Source of the DNA: a bacterium
Lineage (GTDB): Bacteria; UBA8248
Assembly: GCA_965219955.1 (NCBI GenBank)
Contig: OZ244799.1
Location: 1,504,001-1,568,000 of the forward strand
Direction of reading: 5' to 3'
Length of the DNA stretch: 64,000 nt
Shown here: in pieces, positions 57,771-61,966 of the stretch
How positions within the stretch are numbered: the stretch's first letter is position 1
How the letters are laid out: each line of letters opens with the position of its first letter
Notes under the pieces: model-generated
Database searches by the model: none
Told to the model about the DNA's origin: nothing
The model's input: the letters and a program-made list of their open reading frames with translations, nothing else
Program-made: the position numbers and the translations under genes

Positions 57771-58133
57771 AACGCGCATCGCCCTCCCCTCTCATCCGCC
57801 GGTGAAATATCCGGGCCAGGAGATCATTCGGCTTTTGCCTTCACGCCCGCGCAGGAGGCAACCGACAGATTGACCGGAGCCGATGCGGGCGCCGGCGCCG
57901 CAGAACGACCACTGAAAACGACAGGCCGAAGAGTCGAAAACGAAGCCGCTCGATTCGGGCACGCGCCGGAATGACAGGAAAGGCGCAAATCACTGCCTCT
58001 CTCCGATCGTGATCGACCCCCGGTGAACGGTTTTGAAGAAACGGGAGAACTCTTTTATAGTAGCGAGAATCAAGAGCGTCCAGTCGATTCAATCGAAAAA
58101 ATCTCCGGTTGGGCAACCAAAAAGGATTGCGAG

Positions 58134-58973
58134 ATGACAACCAAATTGACCGAAGAGGAACTTCGAATTCTAAGCGAGGCCTTAACATCAGAATCCGAGG
58201 GCCGGAAAATTGGCGAGGTGTTCGTCACATTCTTTGAAAGTCCTGGTTTTCAGCGTAAAAATCTAAAGGCCGAAGGACCTGAATATAGTTACATTAGCTA
58301 CCTTCTAGCATTAAAAGGCGAAAAATTTCCCAAGAGTTCTGCTCTTGCCCGTAACTCAGCAACCCAAATAAGAAGTTTCATCAAGAGACATGACGAGTTT
58401 TCCGATGACCTGAAAGAAAAACTGGCGGTTCATGCAGGCGAGTGTGATGAAATTTCCAATGACGAAGGCCAACAACGAAAAGAAATGAGCGAAGCTGCGA
58501 AGATAATCCAGAGAGAAAAGCATCAAAATGGAATCTACGCTTATACGTACCCACATTATCTCAATCATTACTTCATATCTGCCAAAGACGGTCTTACCGA
58601 TGATCGAACATTCATCAAAATCGGTCGAACATCAAATGCTTTAAGCAGCCGATTGGCGAGCGAAAAAACCCAGATGCCTCAGGATCCGATCCTGTTGTTT
58701 TTCTTCAAGGCCGGCGAGCGCGAACGCGCAGAGGAACCGGAACTAAAGAATACGCAGAATAATATACTTAAAGAAACGGAAACGACCATCCATGACCACT
58801 TGAAATCCATCGGCCATGTAAAATCCAGTTCCGGGGGAGGCGGTACAGAATGGTTCCTGACCAATTCCGCCACCATCGAGTCGACGGCTAAATTGATGAA
58901 GTTGGATATCGTATATGACCATAAAATAGAAGAAGCGAAGCGCGCAGAAGAGGAAGAGAAATCAGGCAACTGA
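58134..58973 (+). CDS. Hypothetical protein with a C-terminal GIY-YIG/T5orf172-like domain
   Basis: GIYAY, IKIGRT, E..IH..L, GTEWF; lower GC; promoter TTGAAG-17-TATAGT at 58033-58061. Confidence 0.65.
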   Translation: MTTKLTEEELRILSEALTSESEGRKIGEVFVTFFESPGFQRKNLKAEGPEYSYISYLLALKGEKFPKSSALARNSATQIRSFIKRHDEFSDDLKEKLAVHAGECDEISNDEGQQRKEMSEAAKIIQREKHQNGIYAYTYPHYLNHYFISAKDGLTDDRTFIKIGRTSNALSSRLASEKTQMPQDPILLFFFKAGERERAEEPELKNTQNNILKETETTIHDHLKSIGHVKSSSGGGGTEWFLTNSATIESTAKLMKLDIVYDHKIEEAKRAEEEEKSGN

Positions 58974-59350
58974 GATTAAACATTCACCCGTATCATCTCG
59001 CACGGGCGTCCCATTCACTGAACATCCCCCAATCATGCGAATGCTCCCTCCCCTCTGGCAGTGACACTCCCAAACCGTCTTCCGGCATGCGCCGGAATGA
59101 CGAGCCAAAACGCAATGCGGGTGGACACGCGGTTCCGCCCCTACGAAATTCTGCGAACCAAACGAATCCGTAGGGACAGGTCGCGACCTGTCCCTGCAAA
59201 AGGCGCAACTCCTCGTCCGCATACCCCTTCTCCGGTCAAGTTTGCCTCCCGGTGAACGGATTTGAAGAAACGGAAGAGCTTTTTGGTAGGGGAATAATTG
59301 GGGAATTATAAACTTAACTATGCAAACTTTTTGAAATCTTTCTCCATTTT

Positions 59351-59761
59351 TCAAGATAATGAAACTAAAGCAATAACAACCATAAACGAAAAAACAAGTA
59401 TTATTGTCGTCGCTGAACCAAAACAACCTGTCCCTTTATTTGCCAATCTTTTTTTATTGCACTCACTACAAACCCAAACTGTCTTTTTTCTTTTATAAGT
59501 ACGAGAACTAATTCTTGGATTCATTCCTCCTCGTTTGTTGGGGCTTCCAATACTAACCCCGGATGAACGTCCCGTTTCCACATATTCCGTATATTCGTGC
59601 ATTTCAGGTTTCGGGAAACGATAATGGCAATCAGGACATTCAGCCGTTGCAACCCTGCCCCTTCTTGGTTTTTTCATTTCTTGTGATTCTGCCGGAATTA
59701 TATCACCGCCCGTATCTTCATCAATAAAATCGTCTGTCATTTTGTTTTTCCCTTCTTCCAT
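59351..59761 (-). CDS. Hypothetical zinc-ribbon protein with C-terminal TM
   Basis: CPDC...CSEC; hydrophobic C-terminus; AT-rich. Confidence 0.6.
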   Translation of the reverse strand: MEEGKNKMTDDFIDEDTGGDIIPAESQEMKKPRRGRVATAECPDCHYRFPKPEMHEYTEYVETGRSSGVSIGSPNKRGGMNPRISSRTYKRKKTVWVCSECNKKRLANKGTGCFGSATTIILVFSFMVVIALVSLS

Positions 59762-59929
59762 TTTCCGCCAATATTTCTACAATCCATAAATGAATTACAT
59801 ATAGGCTAATCGCAATGAGACCCATCGCCACTTAATCCACAGCTTCCCACCTACACAAACATTCCATTGTTTTGGTTCTCCCCAAGCGAGCAAATACATC
59901 CCCGACCTCCCGATAAGGTCGGGCCGTTT

Positions 59930-60037
59930 GCCACACGACTCAGGGATCGATGGTGGGTTCGCTCATCTTCCTGCGAGGAAGCGGTGTTGTATACCGCGGG
60001 CGACGCAGCGAGCAGGTCAATCCATAGGTTATGTGGC
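59930..60037 (-). ncRNA. Candidate structured ncRNA, copy A
   Basis: Preceded by TTGACA-17-CAAGAT; 5' and 3' ends pair; internal hairpins; homologous to 60581-60689. Confidence 0.5.
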
Positions 60038-60128
60038 GAAGAATATCTTGATTGCGATACCGGAATCTGTCAAGCGAGAGGGCCGGGTCGCGACCTGTCC
60101 CTGCAATAGAACCCCGACCGGCCCTCAA

Positions 60129-60354
60129 GGGACTGTTGAAAAAGCCTCGATGAACGAGGGATGGAGAATTATGGCCGCGCTCGCCGCGGATGAAAATTTC
60201 AACCGTAGGGGCGTCGAACTTCCCGAAGAGGGAAGTTCGACCGTGCCCGCCCGTATCGGGAACGTCCATGCCCGTAAAAAGCCTCGGACAGGCACGGAGG
60301 CCTGTCCCTACGGCGAACAATCTCGAAGGTCGGATAGGGGTTTTCAACAGCCCC
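60129..60354. mobile_element. MITE-like element with GTAG-REP cargo
   Basis: TIRs GGGACTGTTGAAAA / TTTTCAACAGCCCC; TCAA directly flanks both ends (possible 4-bp target duplication). Confidence 0.65.
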
Positions 60355-60580
60355 TCAAGCGGGCAGTGGTTCCCGGCCTTCGAAATTCTTCACCGACGAG
60401 CAATGTCGACAAAAAATCCATTCAAGAAGCCAGACAAGAACCAAAACCCTTAAACGCTGCCCAAACGCCAGGCAAATGCCCACCAAATGGGTATTGTTTT
60501 CGGGAAGTCGATCTTGATGTAATCCAGACAAGTTCTCCTAGCGAAGGAAACACGTTTCGACCCCTACAATCGGGTCGATT

Positions 60581-60689
60581 GCCACATAACCTATAGACTC
60601 TTGGGTAGGTTCCCGCGTATTCCCGCAAGGAAGCGGTGTTGTATTCCGCAGGCGACCCGACTAGCAGGTCAAGCCATAGGTTATGTGGC
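60581..60689 (-). ncRNA. Candidate structured ncRNA, copy B
   Basis: Preceded by TTGACA-17-CAAGAT; perfect 14-bp terminal stem GCCACATAACCTAT/ATAGGTTATGTGGC. Confidence 0.55.
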
Positions 60690-60988
60690 GAGAAATATCT
60701 TGATTGTGATGTTGAAATTTGTCAAGCGAAACCAATTCGTTAAAACGGGGATAGGTGATGTCTTGACTCGAGCGGACACGCCGGATAGCAAAGCGGGAGT
60801 TCCGGCACCCCTTCACCACTTCAAACCATAAATATCCCATAAAAGAGATATTCAGCCTCAAATACTCCTTATATATACCATTATTAAGTAGATATTTATT
60901 AAAATTTCTCTTTAATATCTCATTAAATAAAGCGTATTATGTTTTCAGGATACGGAGTCAACAAACTTTTCCGCATGAGGTTCATACG

Positions 60989-61966
60989 ATGAAGATACAC
61001 CCCGAAACACTGAAAAGGCTGCGCAAGGCGCGGGGATGGAGCCAGCAGGAACTGGCCGATAAGGCGAAGATCGAAAAGAAGACCATCGGCCGTCTCGAGA
61101 GCGCAAACGGAGGCGAAGCGCGAGAATCCACCGCCCGGTTGCTCGCCTCCGCTCTGAAGCTGGGGAATCCCCGGATTCTGGCGCTTGGCCCCGAATCAGA
61201 AGCGGTGCGGGACGAAGTATCCCGGATCAACTTCGATTCCGGCGGCTCAGGCCCCAGGGTTCATCTCGACAGCGAAACCGCCCTCGCCTACAACATGGTG
61301 GAGGAACACTACGGGGTGGAGATGCACAGACTAATCGAGGAGGCCCCCATGCTCTTCACACTCCTCGCCGAAGCGAGCTTGGCCGAGCGCCGCCGCCATG
61401 TCGAGGAAGCAAGAGCCGTCCTCGAAGAATTCAACCGCACCCTGCCCGCGCATCTCGCAGACTCCGGGTGGGCATACCAGGAGGAGGAGGAATCCATCGG
61501 GAGGCGCGACCTGTTCCGCCACCCCGGAAACCTCGAGTGGGACGATCCCCGCTGGGAGGAGTATCGGGAAAACGGAAACCCCTTCTCCAACTTCCTGAAG
61601 CGACTGGCTGAAAATCTGAAAGCCGACAACGGCGCGCTCGACCCCGCCGACGTCGAGTTCGACCCCGACATCAGCTGCAGGGGCTATCTTTTTCCCGAGC
61701 TCCGCGCGCACATCACAGGCGGTTCACGGCGCGCCGAGTGGGCCCTCTCCCACGGCCACGTGCGCCTCGGGCAGATACCCAAACGCCTGCGCGGCGAGGG
61801 CGAAGACGCCGCCCGGGAGCGCGCCGAATGGCTGGAGGCGCAAATCACGGACGATGAATGGGCTAAATGTGAGGAGATGATGGCCGCCGCCGTGAAACTC
61901 GGGAAAATGTTGGCGGGCGGAACCGATTCTGACGATGAGGCGGACGAACAGGAGAATCGATCATGA
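60989..61966 (+). CDS. XRE-family HTH protein with a long C-terminal domain
   Basis: LKRLRKARGWSQQELADKAKIEKKTIGRLE. Confidence 0.85.
   Translation: MKIHPETLKRLRKARGWSQQELADKAKIEKKTIGRLESANGGEARESTARLLASALKLGNPRILALGPESEAVRDEVSRINFDSGGSGPRVHLDSETALAYNMVEEHYGVEMHRLIEEAPMLFTLLAEASLAERRRHVEEARAVLEEFNRTLPAHLADSGWAYQEEEESIGRRDLFRHPGNLEWDDPRWEEYRENGNPFSNFLKRLAENLKADNGALDPADVEFDPDISCRGYLFPELRAHITGGSRRAEWALSHGHVRLGQIPKRLRGEGEDAARERAEWLEAQITDDEWAKCEEMMAAAVKLGKMLAGGTDSDDEADEQENRS

Follow-up and report, generated by a model that had tools for sequence, protein, structure and literature searches.

The closest described relative of the RNA considered here is sRNA-Xcc1, a small RNA (sRNA) of Xanthomonas campestris that travels on integron cassettes, transposons and plasmids and has its own Rfam family, RF02221. 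The original report describes cDNA cloning and end mapping that define an 88-nt RNA, seen as a single band of ~100 nt on Northern blots (PMC2996969). Other accounts place it in integron cassettes of Xanthomonas, 5′ of symE and in the same orientation, for which the authors infer a different mode of regulation (bioRxiv 10.1101/2025.06.18.660453), 5′ of an ORF6N gene in two APSE phages (bioRxiv 10.1101/2020.03.17.996009) and, in Xylella, as five tandem homologues ~381 nt apart in a genomic island, all detected as transcripts (PMC12189769). Here we examine two copies, A and B, of a structured RNA on the minus strand of a 64,000-nt stretch (the window) of contig OZ244799.1 (assembly GCA_965219955.1, positions 1,504,001 to 1,568,000) from a bacterium of the UBA8248 lineage. 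Judged by sequence, the family to which they belong is a divergent branch of the sRNA-Xcc1 kind. We hold with moderate confidence that each copy is a portable promoter-plus-leader module with an Xcc1-type core, which would act in cis by way of a toggle and an effector.

A first-pass annotation of the window had described a duplicated structured RNA with identically spaced promoter boxes, and this description holds. A repeat finder aligns positions 59952-60077 (copy A) with 60604-60729 (copy B) at 83% identity across 126 nt. The duplicated span runs from ~5 nt 5′ of the -35 box to a Shine-Dalgarno (SD)-like GGAGAAC ~35 nt beyond the hairpin that follows each copy, so that what was duplicated is the entire promoter-to-SD unit. 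On the minus strand both copies read TTGACA-17-CAAGAT-7-GCCACATAACCTATGG. In copy B the -35 box TTGACA lies at 60720-60725, the -10-like CAAGAT at 60697-60702, 17 nt past the -35 box and 7 nt ahead of the first helix, and the 109-nt RNA body, delimited by fold, covariance-model scores and covariation, at 60581-60689. The corresponding positions in copy A are 60068-60073, 60045-60050 and, for a body of 108 nt, 59930-60037. The fold of copy B has an energy of -49.4 kcal/mol (z score -5.6) and that of copy A -41.3 kcal/mol (z score -3.9); each beats all 200 shuffles.

The first and last bases of the body pair in a 16-bp helix, P1 (60674-60689 with 60581-60596 in copy B). Within it lie a local hairpin of ~6 bp, P2 (60654-60670), and a domain at 60612-60652 composed of P3 (6 bp), an internal loop and P4 (at least 4 bp), after which comes a linker. 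P1, P2 and the P3-P4 arm are modelled as a three-way junction closed by P1. The pairing of the two ends is, as first reported, perfect over 14 bp in copy B (60581-60594 with 60676-60689) and imperfect in copy A, where P1 has three mismatches and two wobble pairs. The body is followed by a conserved 14-nt 3′ tail (AAUCGACCCGAUUG, 60567-60580 in copy B; 59916-59929 in copy A, placed by alignment of the copies), which complements the 3′ arm of P2 and also provides the 5′ arm of a further hairpin, T, formed with its downstream complement. Hairpin T occupies 60557-60578 in copy B and 59901-59923 in copy A, the sequence differing between the two as had been noted, and that of copy A is terminator-like by a loose scan (9 pairs, 6 of them G-C). 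Two internal hairpins had also been proposed. The GCGG..CCGC hairpin is 82% paired in close relatives and thus stands there; in the cross-phylum set described below the value falls to 23%, the bases being engaged instead in P3 and P4. The second overlaps P4.

Are the copies peculiar to this locus? BLAST searches of the 4.28-Mb genome that contains the window gave partial matches elsewhere with the same architecture and different terminal stems. Since MAFFT misaligned the hypervariable P1, with RNAalifold on the MAFFT alignments returning only P3, P4 and an outer stem discussed below, a covariance model (R1) was built on copies A and B, their structure being written out by hand; eight copies were then realigned and the model rebuilt as R2. 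Copy B scores 151 bits against R1 and 131 bits against R2, and copy A 94.5 bits against R2. The genome holds eight full copies (91-131 bits, R2) at seven separate loci and four further weak copies (26-36 bits), three of the latter in tandem beside the copy near 3.73 Mb. The first-pass annotation had suggested that such a model be searched in related genomes. Of the 22 other congeneric genomes 20 have R2 matches, with 1-14 copies per genome, as does one genome in each of three other genera; counting the source genome, 24 of the 61 genomes searched are positive, and the remainder gave no match at E ≤ 0.001 under stricter search filters. Runs labelled sponge metagenome contain the window stretch, and two of them carry both copies on one contig.

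The array near 3.73 Mb (3729663-3731033, minus strand), with its one strong and three weak copies (26-36 bits), is a second tandem arrangement, the last copy of which ends 38 nt before a 389-aa lipoprotein-like open reading frame (ORF) in which the Cys of the lipobox is followed by a long stretch of Gly; locus L033 of a congener has two copies arranged like this array. At 2277444-2277567 (minus strand, 25.7 bits) a truncated copy retains the promoter, the P1 5′ strand and P2, the rest having diverged, and sits directly 5′ of a 346-aa methyltransferase-like ORF.

More distant members were sought with a degenerate pattern of 23 letters across the P2 3′ arm, P3 and the 5′ loop strand. It gave at least 120 stretches in a collection of species genomes. 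By our own arithmetic ~50 chance matches are expected in a collection of that size, hence the matches were checked with R2, and a full-length match (model positions 1-123) was obtained in 71 of the 80 loci examined among the pattern matches listed and none in the other nine. By record title the matched loci come from Alpha- and Gammaproteobacteria, Binatia, Acidobacteria, Gemmatimonadota, Longimicrobiales, Chloroflexota, Spirochaetia, Nitrospirales, Nitrospinota and others, all being records of metagenome-assembled genomes. The same pattern matched at least 120 stretches in metagenome contigs and had zero matches among 2.9 million viral contigs.

That this is a genuine structured RNA family, as the annotation had supposed, is borne out by covariation in alignments of 8, 37 and 73 sequences. 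The proportion of cells paired is 93.4%, 94.7% and 93.6%, respectively, against 76.0%, 77.8% and 64.4% for shuffles and 36-41%, 32-43% and 36-42% for slid partners, with both sides changed at 20, 26 and 27 of the 32 pairs. P1 is 96-97% paired and all 16 of its pairs covary. P3 is 97% paired and P4 97-99%, the latter carrying an insert of up to ~60 nt in most cross-phylum copies; P2 is weaker at 80-84%. The P3-P4 internal loop reads G-A-A-U-A-N-A-A-N-A on the 5′ strand and G-A-A-U-A on the 3′ strand. In the 37 copies found by the model, conservation is 100% at loop bases A53, U54, A55, A57 and A58 and 86-100% along the 3′ strand (A100, A100, U86, A97). The 73-row set was gathered by a pattern and the independent evidence for the loop in that set is the 3′ strand alone, again 86-100% conserved. 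We know of no K-turn, sarcin-ricin or tetraloop-receptor motif that fits this loop.

The long terminal inverted repeats of the unit would also suit an element that works as DNA, namely a recombination site, an attC-like hairpin or a miniature inverted-repeat transposable element (MITE) folding as a single strand. MITE-like repeats occur nearby in the window, and canonical sRNA-Xcc1 is tied to integron cassettes. We consider such an element very improbable. The arms differ between copies with compensating changes and hence are not shared ends; the promoter keeps a fixed distance; just eight copies occur in the genome; the pattern is absent from the viral contigs; and no integrase or transposase family was found among 40 neighbouring ORFs scanned. 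G-U cells outnumber A-C cells by 347 to 33 in the family alignment, ten to one on one strand, which assigns the fold to the strand that reads away from the promoter.

Two specific forms of the DNA proposal were rejected. A high-copy MITE end, a possibility raised in the first-pass annotation, is not the case, P1 having changed on both sides at all 16 pairs and eight strong copies being present in 4.28 Mb. An integron attC site is discounted by the seven separate loci, by the conserved internal core and promoter, and by the lack of an integrase among the 40 ORFs scanned of 112 listed; the copies were in addition compared with what we take to be the attC R′/R″ consensus.

An Rfam search, also suggested at the outset, assigns the copies to no family at threshold. 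None of 4227 families reaches its gathering cut-off anywhere in the window, and at E ≤ 10 nothing falls on the copies within 59500-61000. Three weak matches, to two CRISPR repeat models and one snoRNA model, lie elsewhere and are at chance level. RF02221 has zero matches in the source genome at E ≤ 10. When 20 of the cross-phylum loci were scanned, four gave sub-threshold RF02221 matches of 29.6-32.2 bits against a cut-off of 53, and a fifth match scored 24.4 bits. In these alignments the P2 3′ arm and the tail take the place of the RF02221 outer stem, and the agreement continues through P3, the AAUACAA.A loop, P4, the GAAUA loop and the second strand of P3. A member on a conjugative Novosphingobium plasmid, first encountered as a weak BLAST match to copy B (NZ_CP063447.1, Novosphingobium sp. 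ES2-1 plasmid p2, 2479-2586), is recognized at the same place by both models, R2 giving 34.7 bits (E 2e-6, P1 included) and RF02221 35.0 bits. On the same strand, ~330 nt downstream of this member, is an annotated IS1595-family transposase gene, which is followed by a second transposase gene; a BLAST search of plasmids with a proteobacterial copy as query found nothing, and carriage by IS1595 is not apparent in the source genome, where a scan of 40 ORFs near the copies revealed no transposase family. The earlier statement that the family is unrecognized stands in that RF02221 finds none of the copies of the source genome, and does not stand for the core, which is that of sRNA-Xcc1.

The likeness extends column for column over the segments able to form the outer stem, P3, the AAUACAA.A loop facing GAAUA, and P4. 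It extends also to habit since sRNA-Xcc1 is multi-copy, at times tandem, located in accessory DNA and 5′ of a same-strand gene. There are also differences. The local third hairpin of sRNA-Xcc1 is replaced by the 16-bp long-range P1; the P1 5′ strand extends upstream of the Xcc1 5′ end; an additional 5′ arm, that of P2, is a competitor of the outer stem; and a complement of the tail comes directly after it, where the Rfam consensus has an ACCC-UUUU end. What is new relative to Xcc1 is the long hypervariable 5′/3′ stem starting from the predicted +1 and the competing local hairpin. The RF02221 model misses the P1-extended branch entirely, and the accessible parts of the literature surveyed hold no description of that branch or of a leader role before genes for exported proteins.

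The sigma-70 promoters proposed for the two copies find support across the family in the fixed position of one element. For 68 of 110 family copies TTGAC begins at -38 to -35, counted from the base that opens P1; a -10 element resembling A-A-N-A-T-T occupies -12 to -7. Transcription is predicted to start at or beside the first paired base of P1.

What lies downstream was assessed with a crude rule of our own, which accepts as start the first ATG, GTG or TTG preceded at 4-13 nt by an SD-like word and asks for an ORF of at least 40 aa. A same-strand, SD-led ORF is found within 260 nt of 96 of the 110 copies, at a median distance of 41 nt and at 75 nt or less in 77. Sixty-four of the 96 are signal-peptide-like; 27 have a lipobox as well, and in 16 the Cys is followed by a Gly run. 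Background values under the same rule are 20.8% signal-peptide-like and 2.8% lipobox among 3153 long ORFs of the source genome. Clustering of the ORFs on the first 80 residues gives 86 clusters, of which 58 are signal-peptide-like. The genes behind the copies of the source genome include one for a secreted protein of 138 aa and lipoprotein-like ORFs of 418, 457, 585, 508 and 390 aa, and Pfam assigns none of these to a family. The ORFs of 418 and 457 aa carry HExxHxxGxxH by eye and are zinc-protease-like (418 aa at L294:7967-9220; 457 aa at L297:7643-9013). Cargo that is not exported also occurs, with glycosyltransferase-like, methylase-like and T5orf172-like starts (by eye).

In the window, copy A precedes a 136-aa ORF (59351-59761, minus strand) with two CxxC pairs, a C-terminal hydrophobic stretch and no Pfam family. 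A homologue in a congener (L050, 74% identity) starts ~50 nt past the tail of a leader copy; here the MTDDF start is 175 nt past the tail of copy A. Behind B-type copies, at 60355-60560 (minus strand) in the window and at loci L026, L027 and L029, a stretch of ~200 nt is conserved between congeners. Its open frame encodes a hydrophobic peptide of 43-58 aa (LVGIC..WLLEW..), the start codon and SD not being conserved; it may be a long 5′ untranslated region (UTR) or a small membrane peptide.

The position of the RNA, a median of 41 nt 5′ of same-strand ORFs that are mostly for exported proteins, points to a 5′ leader. Covariation and ORF proximity together describe a conserved structured domain placed 5′ of genes, as in a riboswitch. 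The annotation had inferred a small non-coding RNA family of the antitoxin, antisense or protein-sponge type. It was right in kind; the particular roles are unsupported, and a cis-acting, promoter-coupled leader is the likelier function. An antitoxin or type I toxin system was considered and set aside because no ORF is conserved on either strand of the RNA, in keeping with the earlier remark that the copies share none.

An sRNA acting in trans is a competing explanation. Each copy would then yield a free RNA of ~110-135 nt ending at hairpin T, and the downstream genes would be bystanders or mobile cargo. The published transcripts have this character: the single ~100-nt band and ends 88 nt apart of sRNA-Xcc1 (PMC2996969), and the detection of all five tandem homologues in Xylella (PMC12189769). 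The terminator-like hairpin of copy A, the lack of an ORF directly behind copy B and the tandem copies at this and a second locus of the genome fit as well. We judge this unlikely, however. The sole segments long enough to serve as a seed, the strands of P1, are hypervariable and locked in a helix; an SD-led same-strand ORF begins within 75 nt of 77 of the 110 copies, 93 have no T run behind hairpin T, and a leader that terminated early would yield the same small band on a blot.

How might a leader of this kind work? The family, its fold, the position of its promoter, its association with genes and the core common to it and Xcc1 are established; from these we infer transcription, action in cis, a toggle and an effector. 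The sigma-70-type promoter would start the RNA at the first base of the 16-bp P1. A 5′ end buried in a helix protects mRNAs from 5′-end-dependent decay involving RNase E and RppH, and P1 may, by extension from what is known of these enzymes, be a 5′-end protector of the mRNA. It would be selected for pairing alone, leaving its sequence free to vary. The near-invariant AAUA.AA.A loop facing GAAUA is a putative site for a ligand or protein. Four CCCG/CGGG segments could be arranged in two pairings, either P2 (a:b) with hairpin T (c:d) or the Xcc1-type outer stem (b:c), where a is the P2 5′ arm (..CCCG), b the P2 3′ arm (CGGG..), c the tail (..CCCG..) and d the segment just downstream (..CGGG..). 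An effector would shift the balance between them and so set read-through, stability or translation of the gene ~40 nt downstream. In the window, copy A would thus lead the 136-aa membrane-anchored, zinc-ribbon-like ORF, and copy B may have lost its gene, be a free small RNA or serve as an added promoter.

The toggle draws on several observations. Mean duplex energies for a:b, b:c and c:d are -7.3, -12.6 and -14.7 kcal/mol, compared with -4.6, -7.0 and -10.6 kcal/mol for shuffled partners. For b:c the paired share of cells is 93.4% and 97.0%, and one of its pairs covaries (C-G 46, U-A 12, U-G 13); RNAalifold chose b:c unprompted, and it is the closing stem of RF02221. With these alternative pairings of a, b, c and d the RNA can form P2 and hairpin T or the outer stem, which is the logic of an attenuator. 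We hold the toggle as a hypothesis and place more confidence in P1 as protector and the invariant loop as effector site.

The same observations might be explained by a passive expression cassette, in which a promoter and a 5′ stabilizer or insulator are joined with no sensing and the core has been retained because folding, processing or the loading of ribosomes needs it. P1 begins at the predicted +1 and is selected for pairing alone, the 86 protein clusters downstream are unrelated, and members lie beside mobile genes, namely the plasmid IS1595 transposase and, according to the literature, integron cassettes. A stabilizer does not, on the other hand, need a near-invariant loop of 10 + 5 nt or a tail covarying with P2 that is kept across phyla and in Xcc1, and we regard such a cassette as distinctly unlikely.

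Several points count against the sensing leader that we favour. First, P1 crosses the b:c outer stem as a pseudoknot and is far stabler. The b:c state may never form, and b and c could complement each other as a relic or as a by-product of the likeness between two hairpins. A T run (at least four T within 45 nt) follows hairpin T in just 17 of the 110 copies and inspection by eye of the family loci revealed no consistent masking of the SD. Second, copies from genomes that are related cannot count as independent, an alignment fitted to a model is biased toward the structure of that model, and the pattern behind the 73-row set dictates some of the 5′ loop and of the P2 3′ arm, making conservation there true by construction. 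Third, a simple promoter scan lists neither window promoter, because the weak -10 hexamer CAAGAT agrees with TATAAT at just three of six places, a shortfall in the sigma-70 proposal; on present sequence evidence the support for the promoter is its conservation across the family and not consensus strength. In one metatranscriptome run, which contains 0.13 of the sampled words, contigs cover 59434-59675 and the inserted repeat at ~60129-60354 and none covers either copy; this run is uninformative either way on expression of the copies, and assembled RNA contigs cannot reveal RNA ends. Fourth, the signal-peptide test is a crude rule of our own; the downstream genes share no function beyond export, which is odd for a metabolite riboswitch; and behind copy B there are ~490 nt without a convincing ORF and then copy A. 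Finally, sRNA-Xcc1 is described as a discrete RNA of ~88 nt (PMC2996969), and the title of a 2011 paper by Chen et al. (RNA Biol 8:947) calls it trans-acting.

Certain known leaders offer useful parallels. The c-di-GMP-I riboswitch is a multi-copy sensor of a second messenger that precedes many genes for surface proteins. Like it and orphan riboswitch candidates, the family has a conserved junction-loop core and variable stems, occupies a 5′-UTR position, is present several times in a genome and precedes genes that often encode exported proteins of unknown function. It differs in that the window copies match none of the 4227 Rfam families and in that a terminator or SD-masking platform is undefined here. 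The ompA leader, a 5′-terminal stem-loop that stabilizes its mRNA, likewise has a helix that starts at the first transcribed base; the helix here differs in closing a conserved three-way junction with invariant loops.

If the promoter-coupled leader proves correct, the sRNA known since 2010 as linked to virulence in Xanthomonas is one branch of a far larger family, leaders of which stand before dozens of genes for exported proteins that are unrelated to one another and include many lipoproteins without a family, in at least 10 phyla by record titles. The leaders would give a handle on the control of unstudied surface proteins, an orphan switch candidate, well defined and strongly covarying, with which to screen for ligands or proteins, and an instance of a regulatory RNA moving between phyla together with its promoter. 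A bolder proposal, which we treat as doubtful, is that the Xcc1-type core is the sensor, for a ligand or a protein, of a new class of RNA switch, forming with the promoter and stabilizer stem a horizontally exchanged unit that controls surface and secreted proteins across many phyla, and that the published 'trans-acting sRNA' is its terminated or processed leader.

The surroundings of the two copies agree with the accessory-type location that had been assigned to them, as they share an islet with a GC content of 0.45-0.49 compared with ~0.6. The divergent XRE regulator named earlier is likewise present, a 325-aa HTH_3 (XRE-type) gene at 60989-61966 on the plus strand (Pfam-level match). A homologue 91% identical lies beside one congener locus (L029) and none was found at the other loci examined, so this gene was rejected as a conserved partner.

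Between copies B and A a 230-bp insert occupies 60122-60351; DNA contigs from two other sponge-metagenome runs join 60121 to 60352. Its summed contig depth is more than 100 times that of the flank (5852 vs 43.8). The insert, which carries GC-rich hairpins and is bounded by inverted repeats of 20 nt (60128-60147 and 60336-60355), resembles a MITE-like element of high copy number common to many community members. A palindromic 24-nt repeat resembling repetitive extragenic palindromes (AGGGACAGGTCGCGACCTGTCCCT type) occurs at 59172-59195 and 60079-60102, the two being 92% alike and the second lying just upstream of the copy A promoter. In the same low-GC islet a 316-aa ORF with a T5orf172 (GIY-YIG-like) domain, 58023-58973 on the plus strand, converges on the 136-aa ORF.

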